From a virus (Duplodnaviria; Heunggongvirae; Uroviricota; Caudoviricetes), in the IMG/VR virus record IMGVR_UViG_2778261009_000008, positions 1-51,038 of that record: 51,038 nt of DNA; one strand, given 5' to 3'. The position numbers and the translations under genes were made by a program. The notes under the pieces were generated by a model, which searched no databases, had not been told where the DNA came from, and saw only the letters and a program-made list of their open reading frames with translations. The first letter of the stretch is position 1, and every line of letters begins with the position of its first letter. Below, piece by piece: positions 5,210 through 25,802 of the stretch.

Positions 5210-5254
5210 ACTTTTTTTTCAGGCGTCTTAACTGGTGACTGGTTGTTTGGTGAG

Positions 5255-5716: not shown

Positions 5717-5774
5717 AGGTATTGACTTTTGTTTACCTATAGGTATTCTTTGCTGTGTTTACTAAGGAGTAGCT
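5660..5774. promoter_or_regulatory. Divergent promoter/operator region of the immunity switch
   Basis: Intergenic region between the divergent repressor and Cro-like genes; inverted repeats ATAGGTAAA…TTTACCTAT and a TTGACT hexamer; SD AGGAG precedes the rightward gene. Confidence 0.45.
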
Positions 5775-6056
5775 ATGGAAGAATTAAGAATATTTCTCAA
5801 TTCTCTTTCGTCAGATGAACAGCGTATGTTTGCATGCGAGTGTGGTACCAGCATCGGTTATCTAAGAAAGGCATTGAGTAAAGGCCAAGTGTTAGGGGCA
5901 TCGTTATGTGTCCTTATTGAGCGAGCCAGTAATGGTGAAGTTACACGTCAGCAACTAAGGCCTTTTGATTGGATGAATATTTGGCCTGAGCTGGAAGATA
6001 CCAAAACGTTAACACAACCACTTTCTAGGAGCTTGATTCATGAAAATCAAGCATGA
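5775..6056 (+). CDS. Cro/YdaS-like HTH transcriptional regulator
   Basis: 93 aa ORF with good SD, divergent from the repressor; HTH-like segment (…GTSIGYLRKALSKGQ…). Confidence 0.7.
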   Translation: MEELRIFLNSLSSDEQRMFACECGTSIGYLRKALSKGQVLGASLCVLIERASNGEVTRQQLRPFDWMNIWPELEDTKTLTQPLSRSLIHENQA

Positions 6057-6465
6057 GCACATCCGCATGGCGATCAATGCCTGGGCCTATCCGGACGGTG
6101 AGAAAGTTCCTGCAGCTGAAATAGCCCGGACTTATTTCGAACTGGGGATGACATTCCCTGAACTGTACGACGACAGCCATCCGGAAGCCCTGGCCCGTAA
6201 TACACAGAAAATTTTCCGTTGGCTGGATAAAGACACCCCTGATGCTGTTGAAAAAATGCAGGCTCTGTTACCGGCGATCGAAAAGGCGATGCCGCCTTTG
6301 CTGGTGGCCCGTATGCGCAGCCACAGTTCTGAATATTACCGTGAGATCGTCGAACGGAGGGATCGGCTGGTGAAGGATGTCGATGATTTTGTTGCGTCAG
6401 CGGTTGTTTTGTATGACCAGATGAATCGCGGCGGCCCGGCAGGGAATGCTGTGGTGATGCACTAA
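6040..6465 (+). CDS. YdaT-like protein (CII-position regulator)
   Basis: 141 aa ORF starting MKIKHEHI…, overlapping the Cro-like stop; resembles YdaT-family proteins of Rac-like prophages. Confidence 0.65.
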   Translation: MKIKHEHIRMAINAWAYPDGEKVPAAEIARTYFELGMTFPELYDDSHPEALARNTQKIFRWLDKDTPDAVEKMQALLPAIEKAMPPLLVARMRSHSSEYYREIVERRDRLVKDVDDFVASAVVLYDQMNRGGPAGNAVVMH

Positions 6466-7456: not shown

Positions 7457-7462
7457 TGTGGC

Positions 7463-8209
7463 ATGAAAAACATTGCGGCAGTTGGGGTTCTTGAATGTAT
7501 TCGCAGACTTGCACCACTGGGGGCGGTTCCACCGTACCGGACGGTGGAGGAGTGGCGGGAATGGCAACTTGCTGAAGGACGAAAACGCAGCGAGGAGATT
7601 AACCGCCAGAATCGCCAGTTGCGGGTGGAAAAAATCCTGAATCGTTCGGGCATCCAGCCTCTGCACAGCAAATGCTCGTTTGCAAATTATCAGGTGCAGA
7701 ACGACGGGCAAAAATACGCGCTGAGCTAGGCCAAATCCATAGCTGACGAACTGATGACCGGGTGCACGAATTTTGTGTTCAGCGGTAAAACCGGCACCGG
7801 GAAAAATCACCTTGCAGCGGCGATGGGCAACCGGCTGATGGTGAAGGGGCGCAGCGTGATTATCGTCACCGTGTCTGACGTCATGAGCGTGTTGCATGAC
7901 AGCTACGACAACGGCAAATCCGGGGAAAAATTTTTACAGGAGCTTTGCGGGGTTGATTTGCTGGTCCTGGATGAAATAGGCGTCCAGCGGGAGACGAAAA
8001 ACGAGCAGGTGGTATTGCACCAGATAATTGATCGCCGGACAGCATCACTGTGCAGTGTTGGGATGTTAACAAACCTGAATCATGCCGCAATGAGTACGCT
8101 TCTTGGTGAGAGGATTATGGACCGCATGACCATGAACGGTGGTCGATGGGTGACGTTTAACTGGGATAGCTGGCGTCCAAATGTCAGCAATATGAGGGTT
8201 GTGAAGTAA
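7463..8209 (+). pseudogene. DnaC-like helicase loader interrupted by an in-frame TAG (7727-7729)
   Basis: ORFs 7463-7729 and 7754-8209 are in the same frame and together align along the length of DnaC (…NRSGIQPLHSKCSFANYQ… then Walker A FSGKTGTGKNHLAAA, Walker B LLVLDEIG); the TAG sits where DnaC has a Lys codon. Confidence 0.65.
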
Positions 8210-8230
8210 TTTTGTCCGGAGGAAATTTTA

Positions 8231-8947: not shown

Positions 8948-9261
8948 GTGGCTGGAAGAAGTGGCGTTGGGCTGAAATCCTGATACTCCGGCAGTGTGCG
9001 GGAACGATGAGAGTCGAAAGCATCGGTTATCTGATTGGCCGTAGTGAGTCAGCCGTCAGGACGAAAGCGCGGGAACTGGGGATCAGCATGATGTTACGGG
9101 GTGATTATCACCAGTCAGCCAAATTCTCACAGCGTGATATTGAGCTGGCGCGGCAACTGCATCAGCGTGGCGTACCCCGACGGGAAATTGCCGAAAAGTT
9201 TGGGATGAAGTTGGGCGCAGTGAATAACTACGTTTATTTCGACAGGAGGCTTCAGGAGTGA
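8944..9261 (+). CDS. Hypothetical small HTH protein
   Basis: GTG start overlapping the preceding stop (GTGA); about 105 aa with HTH-like segments; translationally coupled. Confidence 0.45.
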
Positions 9262-9554
9262 GGATTTATATCGCCGGTCCGATGACGGGATATGAAAATT
9301 TTAACCGCGAGGCATTTCACAAGGCGGCAGAGGCGCTGAAACGGGAAGGGCATACCGTTTTAAATCCGGCTGTGCTTCCGGACGGGCTGACTCAGCCACA
9401 CTACATGGATATTTGCATGGCAATGCTCCGTTGCGTGGATGCGGTTTACATACTGAAAGGCTGGCAGCAGTCGGCAGGTGCAAGGACTGAGCTGGCACTG
9501 ACGGAGAAACTGGGTCATGCGGTTATTTTTCAGGAGGTGGTCAGTGAATATTGA
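9258..9554 (+). CDS. Nucleoside 2-deoxyribosyltransferase-like protein (DUF4406-like)
   Basis: 98 aa; N-terminal IYIAGPMTG and downstream SAGARTELALTEKLG resemble the NDT-fold signature with a catalytic Glu. Confidence 0.6.
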   Translation: MRIYIAGPMTGYENFNREAFHKAAEALKREGHTVLNPAVLPDGLTQPHYMDICMAMLRCVDAVYILKGWQQSAGARTELALTEKLGHAVIFQEVVSEY

Positions 9555-9814
9555 CCCGGCGATAACGATTGATACGGCCCTGAATACCGGCCTGGCACTT
9601 CTTGGTTATTTCTACATCATGTTCTGCAGCGGACGATGGATGTCACTGTTGTTCATGAAAAAATGGAATAAACGCCGTAGGCAGGATCAACGCCAGCAGG
9701 CAATGGATGCATTTTTCGAAGCCTTCGGGATTGACGGTATGGAACCAGGAGATCCAGCTCGCGCAATCAGCAGAGGGGGCGTAGTAATCCTTGTATATCG
9801 GAGTGAAGAGAAAA

Positions 9815-10132
9815 ATGACGATCACAAAACAACGTGTAGAAGAAATCATATCCCGCATTGGAATGTATGGACATGGTGCAGGGTATACCGCAGACGAGGT
9901 TAATGATCTGGCTGTACTGGCGCTGAATTTATCAAATATCGCGAACCTGAAGCGATACGAGCTTGATATGGGTGGTTGCGACTCGTGCGGTCAGGATTGT
10001 GGCGCTGATATGACTGAAGATCCTGATGGTGATTATGTCCTGTTTGATGACGTGGTTAAGTTGTTTGAATTTGATACAACCACTCAAAAGTTAGAAATCC
10101 CGGCAAAGGAGGCAGCCAGTGAGCAAGATTGA
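9815..10132 (+). CDS. Hypothetical acidic protein
   Basis: ORF 9791-10132; most plausible start MTITKQR at 9815 after a purine-rich SD; C-terminal Cys cluster CDSCGQDCG. Confidence 0.45.
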   Translation: MTITKQRVEEIISRIGMYGHGAGYTADEVNDLAVLALNLSNIANLKRYELDMGGCDSCGQDCGADMTEDPDGDYVLFDDVVKLFEFDTTTQKLEIPAKEAASEQD

Positions 10133-10556
10133 CTATCAGGCACTGCGTGAGGTAGCACAAAACTATCAATCGACGCTGGCGTGGTATCAGGAAAAGCCAG
10201 ACAGTCCAAACGCTGAACAGGATTGTGATGCAGCTTTAGCGGCGTTTAAGCGTCACATCCGTCATCGGGAAGCGGATATTATCGCTGATTTGCTGGATGG
10301 ACTGGAAGAAGCAAAATCACAACTCAACGAGCAGCGTGAGTATTACGAAGGCGTTATCTCTGATGGGAGCAAGCGTATTGCTGAACTGGAAGCGCGGGAA
10401 GTTCAATTACCGACTCGCTACGACCTTCGATATGGACACCCGATAAATGCAGATGAGCGACAAGTCATGATACCTAAAGAAAATGGCAGTTGGCTTTACC
10501 TGATTGACCTAGAACACGCATTACGCGTCGCTGGCATTCGCATCAAAGGAGAGTGA
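10119..10556 (+). CDS. Hypothetical phage protein
   Basis: 145 aa ORF overlapping the previous stop; coiled-coil-like middle. Confidence 0.55.
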   Translation: MSKIDYQALREVAQNYQSTLAWYQEKPDSPNAEQDCDAALAAFKRHIRHREADIIADLLDGLEEAKSQLNEQREYYEGVISDGSKRIAELEAREVQLPTRYDLRYGHPINADERQVMIPKENGSWLYLIDLEHALRVAGIRIKGE

Positions 10557-10557
10557 T

Positions 10558-10857
10558 ATGGCGTTAACACACCACGAACTCTGTCAGATTGCGTACAAGT
10601 TCCTTAAGCGCAACGGGTTCAAGGTTTGCTTTCATGACCGCTTTGTTGCTGTAACCAGTACCGGAGAACAGCCAGATGCTATGGGATTCAGAAATTCAGC
10701 ATCATGCCTGATAGAGGCGAAGTGTTCTCGTGCTGACTTGTTGGCAGATAGAAAAAAGCGTTTCCGTAAAAATCCCTCATTTGGCATGGGCGACTGGCGA
10801 TTCTTTATTAGTGAGCCGGGAATTATTTCAGTTGAGGATTTACCTCCCGGCTGGTGA
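10558..10857 (+). CDS. Small PD-(D/E)xK / VRR-NUC-like nuclease-fold protein
   Basis: 99 aa; motif …QPDAMGF…(12)…CLIEAKC… matches a PD…E.K catalytic core; start 1 nt after the preceding stop. Confidence 0.5.
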   Translation: MALTHHELCQIAYKFLKRNGFKVCFHDRFVAVTSTGEQPDAMGFRNSASCLIEAKCSRADLLADRKKRFRKNPSFGMGDWRFFISEPGIISVEDLPPGW

Positions 10858-12043: not shown

Positions 12044-12688
12044 CTATTTAACTGTCCATGCCGGGCTGAAATCCACTTCCTGAAATAACTCAGTTAGCCC
12101 GCTAATTTGTTTAAGTCTCAGTACTTCATCCTGATCCATACCCAACTCAGTGCCAATGCGTTCATCTGCCCATCCCAAGCGTGAAAGATCTCTTACAATA
12201 TCAGACACTGAGTCTATCTGGTGTTTCCCCCTAGCCCGGTTATGTCGAATGGTTGCGGCAATGCGTGCGGCTTGCCCTTTTCTCTCTGGATTAATACAGG
12301 CTACAGGCAGCCAGCCCCTCAGACGTTTTCCTGTAACTGATTCTCTGCCCAATAACTGACGATGAAAACCATCCACCACCAGATAATGATTCTTCTCCTC
12401 TGACACCACCACCGGTTGTGTGAAACCATCTTTTTCCAGTGACTGCTTCAGCAGTTTCTTCTCACTTGGTGCCATGACATTGGGGTTATAATCGTTGGCT
12501 ACCACCTCATCCGCTTTCACCCACAGCACACAGTCTACAGGCTCCTGTGCAAAAGGACTGACTTCATGCAGTACCCCGCGCAGATGGTTAAGGGCTCGTA
12601 TGGACTCTTCTTCGGGCTGTTCCCGACTGAAGTACTGACGAATCATGTTGCTTAGTACATCCATCTCAGGCGTCACAGAATCCCCCAT
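12044..12688 (-). CDS. ParB-like nuclease domain protein (IbrB-like)
   Basis: 214 aa; ParB/Srx-fold motifs (…YLVVDGFHRQ…, …IRHNRARG…); overlaps the upstream PAPS-reductase-like gene. Confidence 0.8.
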   Translation of the reverse strand: MGDSVTPEMDVLSNMIRQYFSREQPEEESIRALNHLRGVLHEVSPFAQEPVDCVLWVKADEVVANDYNPNVMAPSEKKLLKQSLEKDGFTQPVVVSEEKNHYLVVDGFHRQLLGRESVTGKRLRGWLPVACINPERKGQAARIAATIRHNRARGKHQIDSVSDIVRDLSRLGWADERIGTELGMDQDEVLRLKQISGLTELFQEVDFSPAWTVK

Positions 12689-13899
12689 TCTTTCCTCCTT
12701 TCCTTCATTCGTTGCAGATAACGCTCATAGTGCCGGGGTTTGTTCGGACTGAAGGAGAGGGTCCGGCACCAGAAGTCATTCTTTATGAGCGTCTTACAGA
12801 TACGTCGCCAGGACGGGATATCCCGGCTCCCCAGGTCATTCTCCTGTTCATCCGGGATATCATCCGGGAAGCCCCGCGTCTGATACCAGCGCAGGTAGAC
12901 TGCAATTTTGTTACGGTAATGTTCTGCTGTTCTTTCTGGCATAACATCCAGCATGAACATTGCGTAGCTGCGCCAGGTATGATGAGCCGGTTTTGTGATT
13001 CGTTTACGCAGAGCAAAATAGGCACCGCTTTCATTGGCATAAAGAGCGCCACTGGCAGCCCCTGACACTCGCTCACACATCCTGGCCCAGGTTTCCGGCT
13101 CCAGAACATGGTAAAGCCACAGCCCCTTACGCTGTTCCGGGCCAAAGGGCTCACAAACACGCATGTTGCGTAACGACACTCCGGCACGGTACATTAGGTC
13201 GTACAGGGGATTGTAGATGGCGCGGGTTCTTGAGTTATACGTCCATATATCATTTGTTTTCCAGTCATACAATGGATACATGGTGTAGTAAAAACCATCG
13301 GGTGAAGCGGTGGTCCAGGGTTTATCATCTGCATATCTCAGTTTGCGCTGAGACACCAGTCCCATAAAGCGATTGAGCGATTCATCAGCACGAACACCAG
13401 TTAGTATTCCCACTCCACATCGGTTACCGGCAAACCAGGAAGAAAATGCCGGAACAAATTCTTCAAACGTCATGGCATACCGATAAAATGGGAAATACGA
13501 CATATCTGTAATAGCGTCATCTGGTGGCTGACGAACCCATTCTACACCTGGCTCCCAACATATCCATTCTGGCTGAAACTGAGAGACGCCATTTACCGTA
13601 GTCAGAGGAAGCGCTACCCAGTAAAAATTGTCTGTCACATGCCGGTACATTTCCCTCATCTTTTGGATATGATTAATCGTGCACTGATATTGGGCTTCCC
13701 AGTCAATGAATAAAACCGAAAAACGACGTTTTTTTCTACTGGCGACTTCTGCCACAAGATGGAAAAGCACAGTAGAGTCTTTGCCACCAGAAAAAGACAA
13801 GCAGACCTCATTAAACGTTTCGAACAACCATTCAATGCGATGGATTGCTGCTGACAGAACATTTTCCCCTGTGCTGATTTTTGTTATGGTTCCTGACAT
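12673..13899 (-). CDS. PAPS-reductase-like PP-loop ATP pyrophosphatase (IbrA-like)
   Basis: 408 aa; PP-loop motif SFSGGKDS near the N-terminus; AT-rich promoter-like region upstream (13900-14050). Confidence 0.85.
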   Translation of the reverse strand: MSGTITKISTGENVLSAAIHRIEWLFETFNEVCLSFSGGKDSTVLFHLVAEVASRKKRRFSVLFIDWEAQYQCTINHIQKMREMYRHVTDNFYWVALPLTTVNGVSQFQPEWICWEPGVEWVRQPPDDAITDMSYFPFYRYAMTFEEFVPAFSSWFAGNRCGVGILTGVRADESLNRFMGLVSQRKLRYADDKPWTTASPDGFYYTMYPLYDWKTNDIWTYNSRTRAIYNPLYDLMYRAGVSLRNMRVCEPFGPEQRKGLWLYHVLEPETWARMCERVSGAASGALYANESGAYFALRKRITKPAHHTWRSYAMFMLDVMPERTAEHYRNKIAVYLRWYQTRGFPDDIPDEQENDLGSRDIPSWRRICKTLIKNDFWCRTLSFSPNKPRHYERYLQRMKERRKEWGIL

Positions 13900-15407: not shown

Positions 15408-15767
15408 ATGCTCATAGATTTGGTTTTACCTTACCCGCCAACGGTGAACACCTACTGGCGTCGTCGTGGCAGCACATATTTTATCTCGGAGGAGGGAAAG
15501 CGCTATCGCCGTGCTGTGGCGCTTATTGTTAACCAGCAGCGGCTGAAATTAAGCCTGTCCGGAAGGCTGGTAATCAGGATTATTGCAGAGCCACCGGATA
15601 AGCGCCGCCGTGACCTGGACAATATTCTGAAAGCGCCGCTGGATGCGCTTACGCATGCGGGGTTGTTAATGGACGATGAGCAGTTTGATGAAATCAATAT
15701 TGTGCGTGGCCTGCCTGTTCCTGGCGGGCGGCTGGGGATAAAAATCACAGAACTGGAGTGCGCATGA
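15408..15767 (+). CDS. rusA: Holliday junction resolvase RusA
   Basis: 119 aa; aligns with E. coli RusA including the catalytic block RRRDLDN…DAL…G…DD. Confidence 0.85.
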   Translation: MLIDLVLPYPPTVNTYWRRRGSTYFISEEGKRYRRAVALIVNQQRLKLSLSGRLVIRIIAEPPDKRRRDLDNILKAPLDALTHAGLLMDDEQFDEINIVRGLPVPGGRLGIKITELECA

Positions 15768-16447
15768 ATAACCAGTATTTACAGTTTGTTCGTGAGCAAC
15801 TCATGATTGCCACTGCGGATCTCAGTGGGGCGACAAAAGGCCAGCTGGAAGCCTGGCAGGAGAATGCCCTGTTCGATACAGGGCGTTACAGACGCAAAAA
15901 AATTCGTTATCGCGATGAGGTAACCGGAAAAATGATCACGCGGGATAATCCACCGATCCCGGGTAAACAATCACTGGCGAAAGGCTCATCAATTGCGCTG
16001 GTCAGTCCGGTTGAGTTTGCAACATCATCGTGGCGGCGTGCCGTTCTGGAACTGGAAGAACATCAGAAGGCGTGGTTACTGTGGTGCTACAGTGGAAATG
16101 TTTGCTGGGAAGATCAGGTCACTATAACACAATGGGTATGGGGTGAGTTTAAAGCTCAGGCTGGTACCAGAAAAATTGCAGGGAAAACGCTGGATCGTCT
16201 GAAGAAACTGATTTGGCTGGCGGCACAGGATGTGAAGAGTGAGCTGGCAGGGCGTGAGACCTATGAACATCAGGAGTTAGCGGTGTTCATAGGAGTTGCT
16301 AAATCTACATGGACAAAAACACACAGGCCTCACTGGTTGGCTATGCGGGGTAGTGCAGAGATGCTGGACAGGGATGCTCTTATTTCAGTAATGCGGGTAC
16401 GTTCACGGCAAAAGTCGCTTAATTTAGAACCATATCTTGCAAAATAG
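15758..16447 (+). CDS. Q-like late antiterminator (putative)
   Basis: 229 aa ORF directly after rusA, followed by a TATAAT hexamer and two intrinsic terminators; assignment rests on position, not on recognised similarity. Confidence 0.5.
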   Translation: MRMNNQYLQFVREQLMIATADLSGATKGQLEAWQENALFDTGRYRRKKIRYRDEVTGKMITRDNPPIPGKQSLAKGSSIALVSPVEFATSSWRRAVLELEEHQKAWLLWCYSGNVCWEDQVTITQWVWGEFKAQAGTRKIAGKTLDRLKKLIWLAAQDVKSELAGRETYEHQELAVFIGVAKSTWTKTHRPHWLAMRGSAEMLDRDALISVMRVRSRQKSLNLEPYLAK

Positions 16448-16516
16448 AACTGAAGAGCATATATTCCGTGTAAATCTGATATTTTGCAGATTTTGTACGC
16501 GATGGCAAAGTAAGCA

Positions 16517-16543
16517 AACCCCGCCGCCGAGCGGGTTTTTTGT
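16517..16543 (+). terminator. Intrinsic terminator downstream of the Q-like gene
   Basis: GC-rich hairpin CCCGC-CGCCGA-GCGGG followed by TTTTTTG. Confidence 0.6.
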
Positions 16544-16562
16544 TGGCTTAACAGGTTATAAT
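16530..16562 (+). promoter_or_regulatory. Candidate late promoter (pR'-like) with consensus -10 TATAAT
   Basis: Perfect TATAAT at 16556-16561 with a weak -35 (TTGTTG) about 17 bp upstream; the upstream edge overlaps the T-run of the preceding terminator. Confidence 0.35.
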
Positions 16563-16743
16563 GTACAGTGCGAAACTGCCTGTTCAGCAGAATCATAGAG
16601 TGTTGACTGATACTGTCGCTGTACCCTGATGGGACTTGTGAGACTTCCGAACTGGAAGCCAGGAGTAGCAATAAGGTGATGACAAGCCTGCTGCCCTGTG
16701 TAAAAGGCACCTTAATGGTGCCTTTGTCGTTTTTATCAAAAGA

Positions 16744-16768
16744 TCCCCGCCACTGGCGGGTTTTTTAT
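16744..16768 (+). terminator. Intrinsic terminator (tR'-like)
   Basis: Hairpin CCCGCC-ACTG-GCGGG followed by TTTTTTA, about 190 nt downstream of the TATAAT. Confidence 0.6.
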
Positions 16769-16889
16769 GCCCGAAAAACGGCACAGGACGTTAAACGCGC
16801 TGGTGCTCGTGAATAGCGACCTTTCATCTTGCTGGCTTTTTCGACAAGAGTTATTGGTGTGTCACGTTAACCGGAAAAGGGAAAAAGAC

Positions 16890-17087
16890 ATGCTGAAACA
16901 GCAGGATATGACAGAAACCGCCAGAGTGGTGTTTAATGAATTAAGCGTCACCGAACCGGCGACAGTCGGGGAGATTGCGCAGAATACTTACCTTTCACGC
17001 GAACGCTGCCAGTTAATACTGACCCAGCTGGTTATGGCGGGGCTGGCAGACTATCAGTTCGGTTGTTACAGACGCCTTCAGTCCTGA
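16890..17087 (+). CDS. Small winged-helix-like DNA-binding protein
   Basis: Shorter start MLKQQDMTE chosen because the longer ORF (16767) would begin inside the terminator; 65 aa with HTH-like segment (…PATVGEIAQNTYLSRERCQLILTQLV…). Confidence 0.45.
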   Translation: MLKQQDMTETARVVFNELSVTEPATVGEIAQNTYLSRERCQLILTQLVMAGLADYQFGCYRRLQS

Positions 17088-17100
17088 AGGCTTTTTTATT
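17074..17100 (+). terminator. Intrinsic terminator
   Basis: Inverted repeat GCCTTCAG/CTGAAGGC followed by TTTTTTATTT. Confidence 0.5.
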
Positions 17101-17237
17101 TGTGGTAAATGGGCGGCTGGTGGGTGTTAGGGGCACTCACCAGCCATCTGCTCATGCGTCAGGATCACAAGCAAACCTCAGGCCCACTGCTTTGCGCAAA
17201 AGCAGAATGAGCCTATCAGAGACAGGCTTAATGATCC

Positions 17238-18296
17238 ATGCTTAATACTGTAAAAATATCCAGTTGTGAGTTAATCAACGCTGACTGCCTGGAATTTATC
17301 CGGTCGTTACCCGAAAATTCTGTTGATCTGATAGTCACGGACCCGCCGTACTTTAAAGTGAAGCCTGAGGGCTGGGATAACCAGTGGAAGGGCGACGATG
17401 ATTACCTGAAGTGGCTGGACCAGTGTCTTGCGCAGTTCTGGCGGGTGCTGAAACCTGCCGGAAGTCTTTACCTGTTCTGTGGCCATCGCCTGGCATCTGA
17501 TATCGAAATCATGATGCGTGAACACTTCAGTGTGCTGAACCATATTATCTGGGCAAAGCCGTCCGGACGCTGGAACGGGTGCAACAAGGAAAGCCTGAGG
17601 GCGTATTTCCCCGCCACAGAGCGCATTCTGTTCGCGGAACATTATCAGGGGCCGTATCGCCCGAAAGATGCCGGGTATGAGGCGAAGGGCAGGGCACTGA
17701 AACAGCATGTGATGGCCCCGCTGATTTCTTACTTTCGTGATGCGCGTGCTGCCCTGGGGATAACGGCAAAACAGATAGTGGATGCCACAGGAAAGAAAAA
17801 CATGGTGTCGCACTGGTTCAGTGCCAGCCAGTGGCAGTTACCGGACGAAAGCGATTATCTGAAATTACAGGCGCTGTTTGCCCGGGTGGCAGAAGAGAAG
17901 CATCAGCGCGGAGAACTGGAAAAGCCACATCACCAACTGGTCAGCACATACAGTGAACTGAACCGGCAGTATACGGAACTGCAGAGTGAATATAAGCATC
18001 TGCGGCGGTATTTCGGTGTGACGGTGCGGGTGCCGTACACCGATGTGTGGACGCATAAACCGGTGCAGTACTATCCCGGGAAACATCCGTGCGAAAAACC
18101 GGCAGAAATGCTGCAGCAGATAATCAGTGCGAGCAGTCGTCCGGGTGACCTAGTTGCAGATTTCTTCATGGGGTCGGGTTCGACAGTCAAAGCAGCGATG
18201 GTGTTGGGGCGTCGTGCTACAGGCGTTGAGCTGGAGACTGAACGTTTTGAGCAGACGGTCAGGGAAGTTCAGGATTTAGCCAGCCAGAACGGATGA
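17238..18296 (+). CDS. DNA methyltransferase (N6-adenine/N4-cytosine class, DPPY motif), orphan
   Basis: 352 aa; catalytic motif IVTDPPYF; no adjacent restriction endonuclease gene visible. Confidence 0.85.
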   Translation: MLNTVKISSCELINADCLEFIRSLPENSVDLIVTDPPYFKVKPEGWDNQWKGDDDYLKWLDQCLAQFWRVLKPAGSLYLFCGHRLASDIEIMMREHFSVLNHIIWAKPSGRWNGCNKESLRAYFPATERILFAEHYQGPYRPKDAGYEAKGRALKQHVMAPLISYFRDARAALGITAKQIVDATGKKNMVSHWFSASQWQLPDESDYLKLQALFARVAEEKHQRGELEKPHHQLVSTYSELNRQYTELQSEYKHLRRYFGVTVRVPYTDVWTHKPVQYYPGKHPCEKPAEMLQQIISASSRPGDLVADFFMGSGSTVKAAMVLGRRATGVELETERFEQTVREVQDLASQNG

Positions 18297-18336
18297 TATT
18301 GCAGGATTAGTTACGTACCGTTATTATCCTGCGCCC

Positions 18337-18412
18337 GGCCCTTTAGCTCAGTGGTGAGAGCGAGCGACTCATAATCGCCAGGTCGCTGGTTCAAATCCAG
18401 CAAGGGCCACCA
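18337..18412 (+). tRNA. tRNA with anticodon CAT (Met, or Ile2 if lysidine-modified)
   Basis: Hand-folded cloverleaf: acceptor GGCCCTT/AAGGGCC, D-arm GCTC…GAGC, anticodon loop CTCATAA, T-arm GCTGG-TTCAAAT-CCAGC, encoded CCA. Confidence 0.85.
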
Positions 18413-18421
18413 TATCACATA

Positions 18422-18498
18422 CCGCCATTAGCTCATCGGGATAGAGCGCCAGCCTTCGGAGCTGGCTGCGCGGGGTTCGAGTCCTCGATGGCGGTCCA
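18422..18498 (+). tRNA. tRNA-Arg (anticodon TCG)
   Basis: Hand-folded cloverleaf: acceptor CCGCCAT/ATGGCGG, anticodon stem CCAGC/GCTGG with loop CTTCGGA (U33, G37), T-loop TTCGAGT, encoded CCA. Confidence 0.8.
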
Positions 18499-18776
18499 TT
18501 ATCTGCATCATGCGTTGTTAGCTCTGATGAGTGAATCATTGTCTTTTGAGCAACAGGCTATCATATAAGATAGTCTCAGATTTCCTTGTTTATTCTCGCC
18601 GGATGCTTCGTAGATATTTGCAGGCATCTGTATGCAGGGGTATTATTGCGGCATATATCATCCGGAAAAATAAAAACTACATGCTGATCCGGAGATGATA
18701 GTTACAAGTCCTCCCGGATCCCGCATATTTACTATATTTTATAGATAATTGTTCTTGTTAATATGGAGATGGATAA

Positions 18777-19205
18777 ATGTATTGCCGTGCTGTACCGGTT
18801 CTTGTTTTGATATTAGCCAGTCTGACAACTGGCTGCACAAAAGATGTATCGACAAATAATTATGATGCTTCGCTGCATCACTCAGATAAATTAATAAAGT
18901 CGCAAAATTTGAGCTTATCGGAACGTACCCCTGATGCCAGTGAAGAAATCCGGCAGTATGCCATTCAGGTCAGGGAAGCCATAGAAGAACAGTTAAAGGA
19001 TGCGGGTAAGTATTCAGGAAAAGAGTGTTCACTGAGAATGTATATGGCCCCGAATGGTCTTCTGCTACAGGTTAAAAGAGAAAGCGGTGATCCCGATTTA
19101 TGTCGTGAAGCGATGAATGCAGTAAAGAATGCTGATATACCATCACCACCGTCTTCAGGAGTATATAAAGCATTTAGAAATGGCGTGCTGGATTTTAAAC
19201 TCTGA
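18777..19205 (+). CDS. Lipoprotein with TolA C-terminal domain (domain III)-like fold
   Basis: 142 aa; signal peptide plus lipobox-like LTTGC; C-terminal about 90 aa align with E. coli TolA domain III (…YSGKECSLRMYMAPNGLLLQVKRESGDPDLCREAMNAVKNADIPSPPSSGVYKAFRNGVLDFK…). Confidence 0.7.
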   Translation: MYCRAVPVLVLILASLTTGCTKDVSTNNYDASLHHSDKLIKSQNLSLSERTPDASEEIRQYAIQVREAIEEQLKDAGKYSGKECSLRMYMAPNGLLLQVKRESGDPDLCREAMNAVKNADIPSPPSSGVYKAFRNGVLDFKL

Positions 19206-19261
19206 CTGGGGGAGAAGATTTTCTCCTGTCCAGATGATTTTGGGGTGCTGGAAAGATATTG

Positions 19262-20640
19262 TGCTGTGAAGTGTTAAATTCCTCACAATTCAGTAAGTTG
19301 ACAGTTGCCTGTCAGACTGGGCATTTGTTAAAAAAATTTCGCATGGTGAATCCCCCTGTGCGGAGGGGCGACTGGTGAACGGTATGATCTCTTTGATGAT
19401 CGTAAGCGAGAATACGCGGGTTTAGTGTCACCGGGCTGAACTCACCGGGAGGCACCCGGCACCATGCTCATGGTGATACAGAAATGCGGCTTCAGCCCCT
19501 CTCTGGAGGGGCTTTCTTATGGACAAAAAAGCCCGCGCTGGGAGACGCGGGCGGCAAGGAATAAACAATAAAACGTGAAGTAATATTTCAGCTGGCGAAT
19601 AATACCCCATAGTAATCACTCTGCGCAACTGCGCGGCCTTTTTCGAATTGCGGGCTGTAGTCTCCCTTCTGCCGGGTGGCCTGGTTGCAGATTTCTTCAT
19701 GGGGTAGGGTTCGGCAGTTAAAGCAGCGATGGCGCTGGGGCGTCGTGCTATAGGCGTTGAGCTGGATACCGGGCGTTTTGAACAGACTGCGCAGGCAATC
19801 AGGGATATATTTATCGGTAGCTGTTTGCAGAAGTAATCTCCCAAAATTCCATTTTTGGAATGCAGTGGTTGTTGCTGTAGTGTGGGCAAGTTCTGGAACT
19901 GGCTTCGTCCATTGCAGATGATTGTTAGCTGGATATCAGTTACCTCATGGAAATGTTAAATGACTCACAGTTCGGTTGATGGACTATTGTCTGATTGATG
20001 GAAGTCTTGTAAAAACGAGCCAGCATAGTGAATCCCCCTGTGCGGAGGGGCGTCTGACATGGTCTCCATAGCGATGGTCACAATACGCAGATTCAGTAGT
20101 CAGGCTGAATCTACCGGGAGGCACCCGGCACTATGCTGCTTATGGTGTATACACAGCGATCGGCCCCTCTCCTGAGGGGCTTTTTTTGTGCGGGAAAAGG
20201 CTGTGTTGTGAAATGTTAAATTCCTCACAATTCATGAGGTTGATGATTGTCTGATTGATGAGGAGTTTGTTAAAAAAAGCGGGCATGGTGAATCCCCCTG
20301 TGCGGAGGGGTGATATCGTATCATTTCCTGTGTGGTCGACTGATATCACGGACATTTGTTCACCGGGAGGCACCCGGCACCATGTAGTATACAGAGATTA
20401 GGCATACATCCAGGCTCCTCATTGCAGGAGCCTTTTTACATGCAAAAAAAACCGCTCCAGGGAAGAGCGGTTGGCAAGGAATAAATAACAAAACGTGAAG
20501 TAATTTATTCAGCGCCCTAATAATACCTTACAGTAATCACATTGCGCAACTGTATGTAAGGGCGTATTTCTTTTTTGCGGGCTGTTTTGTGTGACTTTTG
20601 TGTTTCCGGAGGTCAGCCCGTGCCTTCTCTGACTCAGAAC
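19262..20640. repeat. Triplicated non-coding module (conserved blocks A-B-C plus hairpin, three tandem paralogous copies)
   Basis: Block A (GAAATGTTAAATTCCTCACAATTCA) at about 19270/19949/20210; block B (GTGAATCCCCCTGTGCGGAGGGG) at 19347/20028/20287; block C (CACCGGGAGGCACCCGGCACCATG) at 19443/20112/20361; each followed by a GC hairpin (T-run clear only in copy 2); an about 80-bp block D at 19554 and 20473. Confidence 0.6.
19681..19835 (+). pseudogene. Duplicated 3' fragment of the DNA methyltransferase gene
   Basis: About 125 bp near-identical to 18156-18290 (the C-terminal 47 codons of the 17238-18296 gene) with a TCG to TAG change; no start or upstream gene body. Confidence 0.7.
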
Positions 20641-20662
20641 ATTATTCCGGCCGGGAGGATTC

Positions 20663-22651
20663 ATGGCATTTAAACACTACGATGTGGTCAGGGCGGCATC
20701 GCCGTCAGACCTTGCTGAACGACTGACACAAAAACTGAAGGAGGGGTGGCAGCCATTTGGCAGCCCTGTCGCCATCACGCCTTATACCCTGATGCAGGCT
20801 ATTGCGGCGGAAGGTGATGTCACCACGCCGGTGCTGGTTAAACCATCGGGTGACGGGGAGACGGCTATCAGCAAGACCGGTGAGCCTGAATATTATTATG
20901 TTGTCGCGCTGGCGGGTCAGTCAAATGGTATGTCTTTTGGAGAGGGAGTACCGTTACCTGATTCTTATGATCGCCCTGATCCGAGAATTAAGCAGCTTGC
21001 CCGTCGACGTACCGTTACGCCGCGAGGCGTTCCCTGCACCTATAACGATGTTATTCCGGCAGATCATTGTCTTCATGATGTGATGGATATGAGTGAAAAA
21101 AATCACCCCCGGGCAGACCTCAATAAAGGTCAGTATGGTTGTGTGGGTCAGGGACTGCATATTGCCAAAAAACTGTTACCGTTTATACCGGCGAATGCGG
21201 GCATTCTTCTGGTTCCATGCTGTCGTGGAGGCTCGGGAGTGACTACAGGTAATGAGGGAACATTTAACGCCTCTTCCGGGGCAAGCCCTGATTCTGCATT
21301 GTGGGGAGCTGATAAGCCGCTGTACCAGGATCTGTTAAGTCGCACGAAAGTCGCGCTGGCTAAAAATCCCGGAAATATCCTGCTGGCGGTAATCTGGATG
21401 CAGGGGGAGAGTGATCTGGCTTCAGGAAGCCAGAGTCATAATGCTCTTTTTACTGGCATGGTACAGAAATTCCGTGCTGACATCGCTGATATGTCAGGGC
21501 AGTGCGTGGGGGGCTCGGCACTGAGCGTTCCGTGGGTTTGTGGCGATACGACGCATTACTGGAAAGAAAAATATGCTGCGTCTTATGAAACTGTATACGG
21601 TGGATATAAAAATAAGGCAGCGCAGAATATTCACTTTGTCCCTTTCATGGTTGATGGAAGCGGGGTAAATGTGCAGACCAATAATCCGGCAGAAGATCCT
21701 GATATTGAAGGTATTGGCTACTCCGGTTCGAAGTGGCGAGACAGTTCTGTCAGCTGGACGTCAGGTGACAGGGCAAGCCATTTCGGTTCATGGGCGCGGC
21801 GTGGAATTATTTCAGATCGTCTTGCAACCGCAATTCTGACCCACGCAGGCAAATACCCGGCGTTTATCACCGGGCGGTCAGAAACGGTAGTTGCAGGAGA
21901 TGAACGGGAAAACGTTACATCCGGAGATTTCCCGTCACCTGTGGAGGATGCTGCGTTATCACAGGATGCACCTCAGAGAAGAACGGTTGTTGAGTATAAT
22001 TCAGCTGTTGAGAAAGACAGCCTCGGTGGTAACTGGGCAGCCCAGCACTGGAATGCCCGGGACGGTGTCGCCGAGTTTGTTAATGATGAAAGCAGACAGG
22101 TGCTGAAGATTAAGCAGCATGAGGGCAAACAGGGACCGTGGATGCTGTCAGCAGGAGTATCAGCTGAAGATGCCCGTGCTCTGTATGAAAATGGCGGTGA
22201 AATAAAACTTGAATTCAGGTTGCCGGATGGTACCCAGGTTGCAGATAACAAATACCTCTTTGGTGTTTACCTGCCAGTTTCCGGGTGGACTCAGGAAGGC
22301 AACAGCAGCAATATGATGGCCTCCTTTTTCACTCAGACAAAAGCCAGTAACCTGGATGTCATGTATCACGGTAAAACACAGCCTAATACAAAAATTGAGT
22401 CATTCGGTGCGGTTAATAACAACTGGCACACGCTTGTCTTTAAATATAAAGGAGGCGGCAATCACCAGGTTATTCCGGTACTTGACGGAGAAGAGAAAAC
22501 AGGTTTTGCACTGAAAGAAGGTCCGGTCACTTCTGCCTTTACGGTGGATAACATCACAGTGACAGGTATCAGCGCAAATCAGGGAAAATCTTATCCTGTC
22601 ATGTTCCGCAGTATCATGGTAAGCATTAACCAGGCAACCTCTTCATCATAA
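20663..22651 (+). CDS. Sialate O-acetylesterase, NanS-p-like (DUF1737 + SGNH esterase)
   Basis: 662 aa; N-terminus MAFKHYDVVRAAS… and esterase block YYVVALAGQSNGM; matches the prophage nanS-p gene that follows stxAB in Stx phages. Confidence 0.8.
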   Translation: MAFKHYDVVRAASPSDLAERLTQKLKEGWQPFGSPVAITPYTLMQAIAAEGDVTTPVLVKPSGDGETAISKTGEPEYYYVVALAGQSNGMSFGEGVPLPDSYDRPDPRIKQLARRRTVTPRGVPCTYNDVIPADHCLHDVMDMSEKNHPRADLNKGQYGCVGQGLHIAKKLLPFIPANAGILLVPCCRGGSGVTTGNEGTFNASSGASPDSALWGADKPLYQDLLSRTKVALAKNPGNILLAVIWMQGESDLASGSQSHNALFTGMVQKFRADIADMSGQCVGGSALSVPWVCGDTTHYWKEKYAASYETVYGGYKNKAAQNIHFVPFMVDGSGVNVQTNNPAEDPDIEGIGYSGSKWRDSSVSWTSGDRASHFGSWARRGIISDRLATAILTHAGKYPAFITGRSETVVAGDERENVTSGDFPSPVEDAALSQDAPQRRTVVEYNSAVEKDSLGGNWAAQHWNARDGVAEFVNDESRQVLKIKQHEGKQGPWMLSAGVSAEDARALYENGGEIKLEFRLPDGTQVADNKYLFGVYLPVSGWTQEGNSSNMMASFFTQTKASNLDVMYHGKTQPNTKIESFGAVNNNWHTLVFKYKGGGNHQVIPVLDGEEKTGFALKEGPVTSAFTVDNITVTGISANQGKSYPVMFRSIMVSINQATSSS

Positions 22652-22798
22652 AACAAAAAAAACGCCAGCGCAGAGGAGAACGGGAGGATAAGTTTGACGC
22701 TGGCGGAGGAGTATCCTCATGGAGAACGATATGTAACACATATCGCCTTTCTTTTATTGAAAAGTCATCGCCATTGTCAACCATAACGGTAAGAAACT

Positions 22799-22981
22799 AT
22801 GACATTTGTTCATCAACTGATGCTGTACTTCTGTACGGTGGTATGCGTGCTGTATCTTCTTTCGGGTGGGTACAGAGTCGTGCGCGATTTCTGGCGCAGG
22901 CAGATTGATAAAAGGGCCGCTGAGAAAATCAGCGCCAGTCAGTCAGCCGGAAGCAAACCCGAAGATCCGCTCATTCCGTAG
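22799..22981 (+). CDS. Hypothetical small membrane protein
   Basis: 60 aa ORF with one hydrophobic helix (LMLYFCTVVCVLYLL) between the esterase and lysis genes. Confidence 0.35.
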   Translation: MTFVHQLMLYFCTVVCVLYLLSGGYRVVRDFWRRQIDKRAAEKISASQSAGSKPEDPLIP

Positions 22982-23018
22982 TCACTTTCTTGACAACACC
23001 TTTCAACGAGAAAATCCT

Positions 23019-23288
23019 ATGTCAGAAATAAAATCGCTGGTCACTGCTGAGGCAGTGAAGGAAGTCCTGCGCTCTGAAGAAGTCCTGAGCGCACTGAAAC
23101 AAAAACTCCGCCAGAATCTTGAGGCGCGTCTTGATGCAGAAGTGGATGCCATTCTGGATGAACTGCTGGGCGCACCGACTGTTCCGGAGCCGGAAGGCAT
23201 TGCGGATGACAGTGCTGTTTCAGATGGCGTCGGGTCTCAGCCTGACGGTAGTGAAGAGCCTCAGCCTGACGGCGAAATGATGATGTAA
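23019..23288 (+). CDS. Hypothetical acidic protein
   Basis: About 89 aa starting MSEIKSLVTAEAV…; acidic C-terminus; start chosen at the internal Met of the longer track ORF. Confidence 0.45.
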   Translation: MSEIKSLVTAEAVKEVLRSEEVLSALKQKLRQNLEARLDAEVDAILDELLGAPTVPEPEGIADDSAVSDGVGSQPDGSEEPQPDGEMMM

Positions 23289-23362
23289 CCATGCGCAGGG
23301 GTGTCGGTGTGAGCTGATGCCCCACTTGTTGTTGTGAGCTTCCGGATTGCGGGAGACGGGGT

Positions 23363-23578
23363 ATGTACCAGATGGAAAAAATCACAACAGGTGTGTCATA
23401 CACCACGTCAGCGGTGGGAACGGGCTACTGGATCCTGCAGTTGCTGGACAGGGTTTCCCCGTCTCAGTGGGCGGCAATAGGCGTGCTGGGGAGTCTGCTG
23501 TTTGGGCTGCTGACATATCTGACGAACCTGTATTTCAAAATTAAAGAAGACCGGCGTAAGGCGGCGCGGGGAGAGTAA
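23363..23578 (+). CDS. Holin (lambdoid S / EssD-like, class II)
   Basis: 71 aa with two TM segments and a charged C-terminus (…[13 protein letters not shown]), immediately upstream of the lysozyme gene. Confidence 0.85.
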
Positions 23579-23582
23579 GCTG

Positions 23583-24116
23583 ATGAGCAGGAAACTCCGC
23601 TATGGTTTATCGGCTGCCGTTCTGGCGCTGATTGGTGCAGGGGCGTCTGCGCCTAAAATCCTCGACCAGTTTCTGGATGAAAAAGAAGGCAACCACACCA
23701 CGGCATACCGTGATGGCGCGGGTATCTGGACCATCTGCCGTGGAGCCACCCGGGTGGATGGTAAGCCTGTTATTCCTGGCATGAAGTTGACGAAGGAAAA
23801 ATGCGACCAGGTTAACGCCATTGAACGTGATAAGGCGCTGGCATGGGTGGAGAAAAACATCAAAGTGCCACTGACCGAACCCCAGAAAGCGGGTATTGCG
23901 TCATTCTGCCCGTATAACATTGGCCCAGGTAAGTGTTTCCCGTCGACGTTTTATAAACGAATTAATGCAGGCGATCGCAGGGGAGCGTGTGAGGCGATTC
24001 GCTGGTGGATTAAGGACGGTGGCAGAGACTGCCGTATTCGCTCAAATAATTGCTATGGTCAGATATCCCGTCGTGACCAGGAGAGCGCGCTGGCGTGCTG
24101 GGGAATCGACAGATAA
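23583..24116 (+). CDS. Endolysin (phage lysozyme, GH24, signal-anchor type)
   Basis: 177 aa; N-terminal hydrophobic SAR-like segment and lysozyme catalytic region (…EGNHTTAYRDGAGIWTICRG…). Confidence 0.85.
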   Translation: MSRKLRYGLSAAVLALIGAGASAPKILDQFLDEKEGNHTTAYRDGAGIWTICRGATRVDGKPVIPGMKLTKEKCDQVNAIERDKALAWVEKNIKVPLTEPQKAGIASFCPYNIGPGKCFPSTFYKRINAGDRRGACEAIRWWIKDGGRDCRIRSNNCYGQISRRDQESALACWGIDR

Positions 24117-24207
24117 GCAGAATATTTTGCTGAAAAATGACGTTGACCAACGCGGACGGATAACACGAAATCCTGCGAACTGGCAAAACCTAAGTGAATA
24201 AAAGTAA

Positions 24208-24246
24208 AAACCCCGTTTGTTGGCAGCAAGCGGGGTTTTGTGTTTC
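24208..24246 (+). terminator. Candidate intrinsic terminator after the endolysin gene
   Basis: Hairpin CCCCG…CGGGG followed by TTTTGTGTTT; long loop, moderate support. Confidence 0.35.
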
Positions 24247-24414: not shown

Positions 24415-24909
24415 ATGAACCGCGTTCTGTGTGTGGTCATTATTGCCTTGCTGGTGGCCTGTGGTGCGCTTAGTCTGGGGCTGAATCATTACCGTGATAA
24501 CGCCATCACCTACAAAGCGCAGCGCGATAAAAAAGCCAGAGAGCTGGAGCTGGCAAACGCAACCATTACTGACATGCAGCAGCGCCAGCGTGATGTTGCT
24601 GCGCTTGATGCCAGATACTCAAGGGAATTAGCCGATGCGAGAGCTGAAAATGAAACTCTGCGTGCTGATGTTGCCGCTGGTCGTAAGCGCCTGCGGCTCA
24701 ACGCCACCTGCCCCGGTACCGTGCGTGAAGCCACCGGCACCTCCGGCGTGGATAATGCAACCGGCCCCCGACTGGCAGACACCGCTGAACGGGATTATTT
24801 CAACCTCAGAGAACGGTTGATGACAATGCAGAAGCAGCTGGAAGGGGCGCAGGAATATATACGCACTCAGTGCACTAAGCTGGCTTTTTATTATCCGGAG
24901 GATACATGA
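24415..24909 (+). CDS. Rz: Spanin inner-membrane subunit Rz
   Basis: 164 aa; strong alignment with lambda Rz (…[16 protein letters not shown]…[14 protein letters not shown]…[23 protein letters not shown]…). Confidence 0.85.
24635..24820 (+). CDS. Rz1: Spanin outer-membrane lipoprotein Rz1 (embedded in Rz, +1 frame)
   Basis: 61 aa; aligns with lambda Rz1 (…[11 protein letters not shown]…[27 protein letters not shown]…); lipobox VSAC. Confidence 0.8.
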
Positions 24910-25460: not shown

Positions 25461-25802
25461 GTGCCGGGAATGAAAATGAAAAGAAATCTTCCGTTAATTA
25501 TTTTGTTGTCTTCTCTGGTTATGGGCTGTACGCAACATAAAACAGATATGCCCCGACAGTTGGTTAAGGCATTACCACAATATCCGGCCTATGCAGCGGC
25601 AAATTATATAAAGGGACGGGTTGATGTGAAGTTTGATATTGGTGCTGATGGTACTGTCACCCGAATTGAGTTTATCCGTTCAGAGCCGCACCATCTGTTT
25701 GATGAGCAGGTTGTAAAGGCGATGGCAAAATGGCGATTTGAGAAGGACAGGCCGCGTAAAGGCGTGAAGAAATCGTTTATCTTTAGTCCTTCTGCACCCT
25801 GA
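25461..25802 (+). CDS. Lipoprotein with TonB C-terminal domain-like fold
   Basis: 113 aa; signal peptide with lipobox-like LVMGC; …LPQYPAYAAANYIKGRVDVKFDIGADGTVTRIEFIRSEPHHLFDEQVVKAMAKWRFE… fits the TonB_C signature. Confidence 0.7.
   Translation: MPGMKMKRNLPLIILLSSLVMGCTQHKTDMPRQLVKALPQYPAYAAANYIKGRVDVKFDIGADGTVTRIEFIRSEPHHLFDEQVVKAMAKWRFEKDRPRKGVKKSFIFSPSAP

Follow-up and report, generated by a model that had tools for sequence, protein, structure and literature searches.

A Shiga toxin phage-type moron slot without stx, in a probable PPompW-lineage prophage, carries a predicted lipoprotein-tethered TolA domain III

We analysed the late region of a prophage in a stretch of viral DNA of 51,038 nucleotides (nt) (Caudoviricetes; IMG/VR record IMGVR_UViG_2778261009_000008), the whole of which is called the window below. 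Positions 15.7-25 kb of the window are very probably the Q-to-lysis region of an stx-negative lambdoid prophage of the ompW-integrating PPompW lineage, which shares the type of moron slot found in Shiga toxin (Stx) phages. The cargo in this slot is a 142-amino acid (aa) predicted lipoprotein with a TolA domain III (TolA-III), followed by small RNA (sRNA) genes. The architecture is not new, as the layout was described by Tree et al., 2014 (PMC4104026) and near-identical copies are present in RefSeq; the potential for novelty is confined to the uncharacterised lipoprotein-tethered TolA domain III.

Synteny was assessed by blastn against the reference Stx2a phage Stx2a_WGPS2 (NC_049941), with the following result (phage positions first):

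2918-4686, window 16746-18524: 94% identity over 1.78 kb; terminator, small open reading frame (ORF), methylase, ileZ and argN
4842-6082: stx2AB, no match in the window
6128-6366, window 19283-19520: 89% identity; the sRNA directly 3' of stx2B
6947-8133, window 20663-21849: 73% identity; esterase gene
8994-10828, window 22773-24211: 81-90% identity; DUF1378 to lysozyme

The gene order in an Stx1c phage and in Sakai Sp5 is also the same as in the window. The original prediction had described a late region running from a Q-like gene to a lysis cassette, syntenic with that of Stx-converting phages and free of AB5-toxin-like ORFs. All of its listed elements are present, in the order given and on the plus strand, and the alignments to Stx2a_WGPS2, the Stx1c phage and Sakai Sp5 agree with the synteny that it proposed. 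The absence of a toxin was upheld as well, because tblastn and blastn searches for stx remnants stayed at chance level: in tblastn with the A and B subunits of Stx1c and Stx2a, the best E values were 0.5-21 for the slot and 0.03-3.8 for the window as a whole, and both stx operons, compared with slot and window by blastn at word size 7, gave chance matches alone (12-42 nt, best E 0.18). Ten other slot ORFs (42-153 aa, on both strands) returned nothing above threshold against Pfam at E<=0.1. The 153-aa ORF among these, on the minus strand at 19428-19889, overlaps an sRNA gene and a methylase fragment and was regarded as spurious. The whole of the 2,164-nt slot is taken up by the remnant of a tRNA (argO), a spacer of high AT content, the TolA-III gene, the sRNA modules and the fragment of a methylase gene.

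The genes that lead up to the slot are the following:

16890-17087, plus strand: small conserved ORF, 65 aa (RefSeq WP_000917768), counterpart of H3V23_gp28 in Stx2a_WGPS2
17238-18296, plus strand: N6/N4 DNA methyltransferase with motif VTDPPYF (PF01555, 1.1e-42; PADLOC MTase_II, 5.6e-162)
18337-18412, plus strand: tRNA-Ile2 (CAU), equivalent of ileZ (ARAGORN, Rfam)
18422-18498, plus strand: tRNA-Arg (UCG), equivalent of argN (ARAGORN, Rfam)
18512-~18563 (end approximate), plus strand: decayed remnant of argO, the third phage tRNA (alignment with Stx2a_WGPS2 and mEp460)

The sole Pfam match of the 65-aa ORF was a sub-threshold TrmB-like one, and the methylase gene is 94% identical in nucleotide sequence to that of the Stx2a phage. 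ARAGORN labels the tRNA at 18337-18412 as Met; in RefSeq and in Sakai it is a tRNA-Ile with anticodon cat. Two intact tRNAs (ileZ and argN) had been predicted and were found, and that account is amended by the third Stx-phage tRNA, which survives as a decayed remnant. Its first 13 nt are intact and beyond these there is patchy similarity alone; neither ARAGORN nor Rfam calls a tRNA there. Homology by blastn stops at 18524 against both Stx2a_WGPS2 and mEp460, and this breakpoint, 13 nt into argO, is the left edge of the cargo slot.

The cargo gene itself is a single ORF:

18777-19205, plus strand: 142-aa lipoprotein with TolA domain III (PF06519, 3.4e-22)

Residues 55-141 align ungapped with residues 334-420 of E. 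coli TolA (E 7e-25), with 44 of the 87 positions identical (51%). Both cysteines are kept in this alignment, and Asp139 and Lys141 correspond to TolA Asp418 and Lys420, whose mutation in TolA results in a tol phenotype and blocks killing by colicins (PMC4339652). TolA Tyr-352, which has been implicated in TolB binding (PMC2707214), was dropped as a conservation test, its numbering being ambiguous on the alignment. Chains of TolAIII in the PDB were matched at E 7e-25, and the top Foldseek fold matches of the predicted structure (3qdp, 3qdr, 1tol and 2x9a) are all TolAIII. The N-terminus is a lipoprotein signal, MYCRAVPVLVLILASLTTG|C, with lipobox LTTG|C and a Thr at position +2. A signal peptide and lipobox with a residue other than Asp at +2 predict an acylated lipoprotein sorted to the outer membrane. 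Between lipobox and domain lies a linker of ~34 aa that is predicted to be disordered (predicted local distance difference test, pLDDT, below 50 for residues 1-52). All 21 aligned family members have the lipobox Cys, a lipobox is present in nearly all of 24 divergent homologs inspected, and the lipobox Cys, both domain cysteines and the C-terminal strand are kept across members that are 29-64% identical. The gene has a GC content of 42% and the spacer upstream of it 38%, against 52.6% for the window, and a Shine-Dalgarno sequence, GGAG, lies 8 nt upstream of its ATG.

Compared with full-length TolA, domain III is clearly homologous, whereas the inner-membrane anchor (domain I) and the helical domain II are missing and a lipoprotein signal is found instead. 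The protein would therefore have no TolQR coupling and no force transduction. Since domains I and II are missing, it is not a TolA orthologue, and its RefSeq name, 'cell envelope integrity protein TolA' (WP_032330558.1, gene symbol tolA), is misleading. NCBIfam PRK09510 scored 99.8 bits against a cutoff of 213 and matched over model positions 298-386 alone. The 'TolA' naming by PGAP is a systematic over-annotation that extends over hundreds of genomes and plasmids. In PHROGs the cargo belongs to phrog_5772, 'unknown function'.

The gene is carried by 897 of 5,426 complete E. coli genomes (about one in six), and 894 of these have 80% or more of its length. Its position in the E. coli, phage mEp460 and Salmonella prophages examined is always between the antiterminator gene and the holin, and it occupies this interval behind at least three antiterminator families; where the prophage has no esterase gene, it lies ~1.5 kb upstream of the holin. 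The number of carrier genomes, the conserved cysteines and strand, and the constant position between Q and holin suggest a real, selected gene. Among 50,697 phage records a single one (mEp460) has it, and none of ~250 Stx phage records does. A scan of species-representative genomes gave one locus, in Shigella flexneri, and says little about distribution, for which the searches of E. coli genomes, plasmids and representative proteins told more. Among 1.84 billion representative proteins there were 292 relatives, of which many are 120-150 aa long and 31-47% identical over their full length. A lipoprotein homolog of ~32% identity is encoded on 1,328 plasmids (672 from Klebsiella and 550 from Escherichia), of which 506 are conjugative. 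These plasmid homologs, annotated 'TolA', include some on pKpQIL-sized Klebsiella and E. coli plasmids. In two plasmids examined (IncR and IncF; loci L015 and L016, 5001-5435) the homolog is directly downstream of a thioredoxin-fold gene, within a conserved block of hypothetical genes and with no lysis genes nearby.

Much of the prophage recurs in E. coli JNEC-KY203. Window positions 1-25663 are ~99.97% identical to that strain and the slot is 100% identical to its chromosome; the structural genes are just 90-97% identical, and the window is therefore a close relative of the JNEC-KY203 prophage, not JNEC-KY203 itself. Identity with that strain was rejected on the grounds that near-identity is limited to the first 25.6 kb and that an insert of the strain encoding an OmpC porin is missing in the window. 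This 1.57-kb insert, with an OmpC-type porin gene, lies among the tail genes of the JNEC-KY203 prophage (L012 10690-12266), at a point where the window (40406-40416) is without it. The JNEC-KY203 copy of the prophage adjoins ompW, and some PPompW prophages are in tandem with Stx2a phages. Of the 5,426 complete E. coli genomes, 85 contain 80% or more of the slot.

Upstream of the small ORF, the late control elements are arranged as follows:

15408-15767, plus strand: RusA (ORF/Pfam listing)
15758-16447, plus strand: late antiterminator Q, 229 aa (PF06323, E 2.6e-89; RefSeq 'bacteriophage antitermination protein Q')
16437-16465, plus strand: candidate late promoter PR' at the end of Q, TTGCAA-17-TATATT (9 matches out of 12 in a consensus scan)
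16520-16535, 16703-16725, 16746-16760 and 17074-17091, plus strand: cluster of tR'-type terminators, each a hairpin followed by a T-run

The Q gene, which sits just outside the start coordinate of the original prediction, is present as had been claimed, but its allele is of the PPompW type and differs from that of the reference Stx2a phages; the nearest phage alleles are Q genes of non-Stx PPompW prophages, at 77%. Similarity to the Stx2a phage begins at the 16746 hairpin, and Q and PR' are a different module. The PR' assignment is inferred from a position analogous to that of lambda PR'. In the terminator scan of 16400-20700 we found 20 terminator-like sites, compared with 4.2 +/- 2.5 in shuffles, and no plus-strand terminator was predicted between the tRNAs and the TolA-III gene.

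How the slot would operate can be inferred from lambda and Stx-phage biology. Q would modify RNA polymerase at the candidate PR' (16437-16465), and the modified polymerase would pass the tR' terminators (16520-17091) and those of the sRNAs, giving one late transcript that runs from the methylase gene through both tRNAs, the cargo gene and the sRNA array to nanS-p and the S-R-Rz lysis genes. Like stx2, the contents of the slot would then be strongly expressed upon induction. Promoters of their own might also allow the sRNAs, and perhaps the cargo gene, to be made in the lysogen.

We tentatively read the cargo as a decoy for TolA-dependent agents that makes the lysogen tolerant to them. The lipoprotein would be anchored at the inner face of the outer membrane, where it might bind agents that seek TolA-III: group A colicins, by their translocation domains, and filamentous phages, by the N1 domain of g3p. 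Capture of these ligands would render the lysogen tolerant to group A colicins and filamentous phages. In favour of this reading are the ungapped match with its equivalents of TolA Asp418 and Lys420, and the lack of a predicted plus-strand terminator between the tRNAs and the gene. Beta-strand augmentation is the mode in which g3p, TolB and colicin A all bind TolAIII, and colicin N docks there too (PMC7391070). The plasmid homologs have no lysis genes nearby, which argues for a role in the living cell and against one specific to lysis. Levengood-Freyermuth, Click and Webster are said to have found in 1993 that periplasmic TolAIII makes cells tolerant to colicins and phages.

A late accessory of lysis and release is an unlikely alternative function for the same protein. 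In that case the lipoprotein, produced in large amounts from the Q-dependent late transcript, would titrate TolB (or CpoB) from TolA and switch off Tol-Pal, with a looser outer membrane, more vesiculation and help to spanin-mediated rupture and release as the effects. The location of the gene in the late operon by the lysis cassette, with no predicted plus-strand terminator between tR' and the gene, is in line with such a function, as is its distance of ~1.5 kb from the holin in prophages that lack the esterase, and loss of the TolA-TolB contact is known to result in a leaky outer membrane (PMC4339652; PMC7391070). However, homologs of the same architecture are found on the 1,328 plasmids away from lysis genes, and most lambdoid phages, including the ~250 Stx phage records, lyse their hosts without the gene (one in 50,697 phage records has it). 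Moreover, the affinity of TolAIII for TolB is low, with a dissociation constant of about 40-200 uM (PMC7391070), and the low GC content, AT-rich spacer and good Shine-Dalgarno sequence are typical of an independently expressed moron.

Several observations weigh against the decoy reading and the model of slot expression. Expression, localisation and binding of the cargo are all predicted from sequence, and TolAIII, whether free or tethered, could just as well titrate TolB and cause envelope damage. The promoter assignments are weak consensus matches, the scan giving 8 promoter-like sites where 5.8 were expected. The structure prediction, built from a shallow alignment, has a mean pLDDT of 62 (~80 in the domain) and a root-mean-square deviation of 6-8 A to the TolAIII structures, and served for the fold class alone, not for interfaces. 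Three E. coli variants (P0021, P0022 and P0028) have a frameshifted C-terminus in place of the last beta-strands, where ligands are expected to bind, and the gene is thus dispensable in some strains and decaying in some lineages. Literature on the phage or plasmid TolA-III protein and its plasmid homologs yielded mentions in gene lists alone, such as a 'TolA protein' in prophage regions of uropathogenic E. coli (PMC6854850), and none on function. Finally, it is uncertain whether the prophage copy in the window can be induced, because in the near-identical JNEC-KY203 prophage the replication ATPase gene is interrupted by a stop codon and the int, portal and capsid genes are frameshifted. The window itself has long, open ORFs for int, terminase, capsid and tail proteins. 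At the position of the DnaC-like replication ATPase (~7460-8210) no plus-strand ORF of at least 180 aa was found, and together with the stop in the JNEC-KY203 copy this suggests that the prophage may be replication-defective, even with its int, terminase, capsid and tail ORFs open.

Downstream of the cargo gene, the 'triplicated module' of the original prediction is present in three copies, which can now be assigned to a curated sRNA family, STnc100. These copies and two convergent elements are located as follows:

19312-19524, plus strand: STnc100 copy 1 (RF02076, 172.3 bits), terminator 19494-19513
19524-~19600 (5' end approximate), minus strand: convergent element 1, terminator 19552-19531
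19994-20189, plus strand: STnc100 copy 2 (RF02076, 120.8 bits), terminator 20162-20181
20254-20443, plus strand: STnc100 copy 3 (RF02076, 139.0 bits), terminator 20412-20433, ~220 nt upstream of the esterase gene
20444-~20520, minus strand: convergent element 2, a paralogue of element 1, terminator 20472-20450, fold z-score -4.5

The gathering score of RF02076 is 47 bits, and all three copies span model positions 1-206. Copy 1, which starts 107 nt past the stop codon of the TolA-III gene, is 89% identical to the sRNA 3' of stx2B. When the copies were aligned with those of other phages, two invariant hairpins and the terminator were common to all, the central ~70 nt being strongly divergent; compensatory changes were seen at 17 of 54 predicted pairs. 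The copy number is one in Stx2a_WGPS2, Sp5 and mEp460, two in the Stx1c phage, three in the window and four in its close relatives. In phage phiSTEC1589-Stx1c the two STnc100-like copies are in tandem between stx1B and the esterase gene (L018 3501-4131), and the two opposite-strand 'hypothetical protein' coding sequences annotated there are probably spurious calls over sRNA genes. The Hfq-bound EcOnc27/sRNA103 is the counterpart of the copy 3' of stx2B (PMC12711010; PMC12370729), and the family is related to PasD, which is encoded directly upstream of the esterase gene (preprint 10.64898/2026.05.13.724894). Family members are bound by Hfq and expressed in enterohaemorrhagic and enteropathogenic E. 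coli (EHEC and EPEC; PMC4104026; PMC12711010; 10.64898/2026.05.13.724894).

The two convergent elements abut STnc100 copies 1 and 3 and have in common a core of ~33 nt, ATTACTTCACGTTTTRTTRTTTATTCCTTGCC. Each has a terminator hairpin and U-run, and the stems differ from each other by compensatory changes. The same geometry is found in Sakai Sp5, where STnc100 (3923-4128, plus strand) abuts AsxR (4130-4182, minus strand). By covariance model and by alignment the elements are not AsxR or AgvB: neither family (RF02702, RF02703) produced a match at E<=1, and the elements do not align with Sakai AsxR. Weak matches to OmrA-B, anti-hemB and rli32 were discarded as involving the terminator hairpins alone. 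No Rfam family was matched by the elements, and they are candidate members of a new short-sRNA family in prophages.

The slot is a mosaic, formed by recombination and deletion, of two late regions. The features that record this history are:

19672-19836, plus strand: 3' fragment of a second methylase gene, with 85-89% identity to the corresponding part of the intact one
19860-19869: deletion junction relative to close relatives, which have an additional 1.28 kb with an AraC-family gene

RefSeq annotates the fragment as a pseudogene with 'missing N-terminus' and an internal stop. Window 18296-19869 corresponds to positions 2501-4074 of the L004 locus, and window 19860-20310 to its positions 5354-5803. 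The relatives, STEC1585 and OkiPb01681, are 97.6% identical and have the 1.28-kb segment as well as one more distal sRNA copy. Their AraC-family regulator (241 aa; PF12833/PF00165; phrog_1450) is at 4105-4830 of L004 (STEC1585) and at 4106-4831 of L005. Another relative has IS200C in the same slot, so that slot contents differ among prophages that are otherwise 95-98% identical. The ~110 nt that follow copy 1 have a paralogue immediately 5' of the esterase gene (repeats D3 and D4) and run into the methylase 3' end. The simplest reading is that the slot is a join of one segment with methylase, tRNAs, tolA-III, sRNA and pre-esterase sequence to another with methylase 3' end, AraC gene, sRNAs and esterase, followed by the deletion. 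Such a join supports the proposal of a recombination hotspot with exchanged cargo, which is borne out by the relatives, with an AraC gene and fourth sRNA or IS200C in the slot, and by the occurrence of TolA-III behind at least three antiterminator families.

A second alternative concerns the origin of the slot: the prophage could be a former Stx phage that lost stxAB and acquired its present cargo by replacement recombination, which we consider improbable. Its flanks are indeed Stx-like, at 94% up to 13 nt into argO and at 89% for the sRNA 3' of stx2B; the ompW site is also used by Stx2a phages (records with PPompW and Stx2 prophages in tandem); and the slot has scars in the form of the methylase fragment, the deletion and the decayed tRNA. 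On the other hand, no stx remnant was found at any level, and the direction of exchange is therefore unreadable from the sequence, and the Q/PR' module belongs with those of the non-Stx PPompW prophages. The same moron also occupies the Q-to-holin interval of unrelated non-Stx phages, of which mEp460 has the same argO breakpoint; the tolA-III cassette is therefore old and mobile, and no local patch over a deleted toxin. That the content of the slot is non-functional debris, with the TolA-like ORF a captured fragment and the repeats duplication scars, is very improbable: debris does occur there, in the form of the tRNA remnant, the methylase fragment and the deletion junction, and some family members are frameshifted, but the ORF is intact in 894 genomes, homologs down to 29% identity retain a complete signal peptide, lipobox, cysteines and C-terminal strand, and the three repeats score 121-172 bits against a curated model, with intact terminators, the compensatory pairs noted above and a family that is Hfq-bound and expressed in EHEC and EPEC.

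The esterase, lysis and lipoprotein genes that follow the slot are:

20663-22651, plus strand: predicted NanS-p-type sialate O-acetylesterase, 662 aa (DUF1737, SASA, DUF6645; phrog_143, 7e-282)
22799-22981, plus strand: DUF1378, small ORF also found in Stx phages
23019-23288, plus strand: DUF826, small ORF also found in Stx phages
23363-23578, plus strand: class II holin (PF04971)
23583-24116, plus strand: lysozyme (PF00959)
24415-24909, plus strand: Rz (PF03245)
24635-24820, plus strand: Rz1, embedded in Rz (lipobox LVVSAC)
25476-25802, plus strand: TonB-C lipoprotein, 108 aa (lipobox LVMG|C; PF03544, 7.4e-15)

A NanS-p-like esterase followed by a lysis cassette had been predicted, and both were recovered: the esterase has the domains DUF1737, SASA and DUF6645, the cassette has PF04971, PF00959 and PF03245, and nucleotide identity to Stx phages is 72-90%. 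For the esterase gene alone it is 72-73% to the Stx2a and Stx1c phages. The TonB-C ORF, downstream of Rz/Rz1, is named 'TonB family protein' in RefSeq and belongs to a PHROGs family labelled 'Rz-like spanin'; we take its position to be that of bor in lambda. One prophage thus encodes predicted lipid-tethered forms of the ligand-binding domains of both TolA and TonB. Among the other TolA-III prophages examined, none combined TolA-III with TonB-C. PADLOC models matched neither lipoprotein, the methylase alone being recognised (MTase_II). Further upstream, between the early region and DUF968/RusA/Q, the minus strand at 12044-13899 has genes for a protein that resembles 3'-phosphoadenosine 5'-phosphosulfate reductases (IbrA-like, 408 aa) and an IbrB-like protein (214 aa), a pair that is a further moron-like insertion.

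Homologs of TolA-III are found in lambdoid prophage late regions and on >1,300 plasmids of IncF/IncR type. It is possible, if doubtful, that mobile elements of Enterobacteriaceae widely carry lipid-anchored decoys in which the C-terminal domain of a transducer (TolA or TonB) is placed under the outer membrane. If so, TolA decoys would intercept colicins and g3p and TonB decoys would intercept TonB-box colicins and TonB-dependent phages, protecting the host of the element, including hosts with conjugative pili, the primary receptors of filamentous phages. Many plasmids of clinical importance also encode the lipid-tethered domain. Were the gene to confer tolerance to Tol-dependent colicins or filamentous phages, or to alter the stability and vesiculation of the outer membrane, it would add a new type of function to those of lysogenic and plasmid conversion, with a bearing on colicins and phages as antimicrobials. 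The region illustrates that stx, in Stx phages, sits in a general cargo bay. The flanks of this bay, with methylase and tRNAs to one side and sRNA and esterase to the other, undergo recombination between prophages with and without the toxin in the same strains, a point of relevance for the movement of stx between backbones.

The closest parallels to the window are the Stx2 phages (Sp5, 933W and Stx2a_WGPS2), with which it shares the order Q, PR'/tR', small ORF, DPPY methylase, ileZ, argN and cargo, continuing with an STnc100/EcOnc27 sRNA, nanS-p esterase, DUF1378, DUF826, holin and lysozyme. Unlike these phages, the window has no stxAB, a decayed argO and a TolA-III lipoprotein as cargo, three sRNA copies compared with one, no AsxR by Rfam, and a Q/PR' of another family (PF06323, 229 aa, 77% to the PPompW Q). 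The same layout was described by Tree et al., 2014 (PMC4104026), who report morons inserted downstream of a Q-antiterminated PR' and followed by convergent sRNAs and then a conserved ORF. The non-Stx EHEC prophages Sp3, Sp4, Sp9, Sp10, Sp11, Sp15 and Sp17 treated there resemble the window in this combination of moron and convergent sRNAs; the minus-strand partners in the window differ in not being AsxR or AgvB by sequence or covariance model, and a TolA-III moron is not discussed in the portion of that paper available to us. Phage mEp460 (LR597641) and the E. coli, Shigella and Salmonella prophages with the gene (41-65% amino acid identity) likewise have it between Q and holin, near phage tRNAs and an STnc100 copy. 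They differ in their antiterminators (PF03589, DUF1133), in that the methylase is usually and the esterase often missing, and, for mEp460, in that the sRNA is upstream of the TolA-III gene whereas in the window it is downstream. With respect to function alone, the proposed decoy may be likened to Cor (phi80, N15 and HK022) and Llp (T5), small lipoproteins that temperate and virulent phages have their hosts make and that work at the outer membrane against incoming phages or colicins. These two target the receptor FhuA and share no sequence relationship with the cargo of the window, which resembles a copy of the periplasmic co-receptor itself, which would imply a decoy rather than a receptor block.

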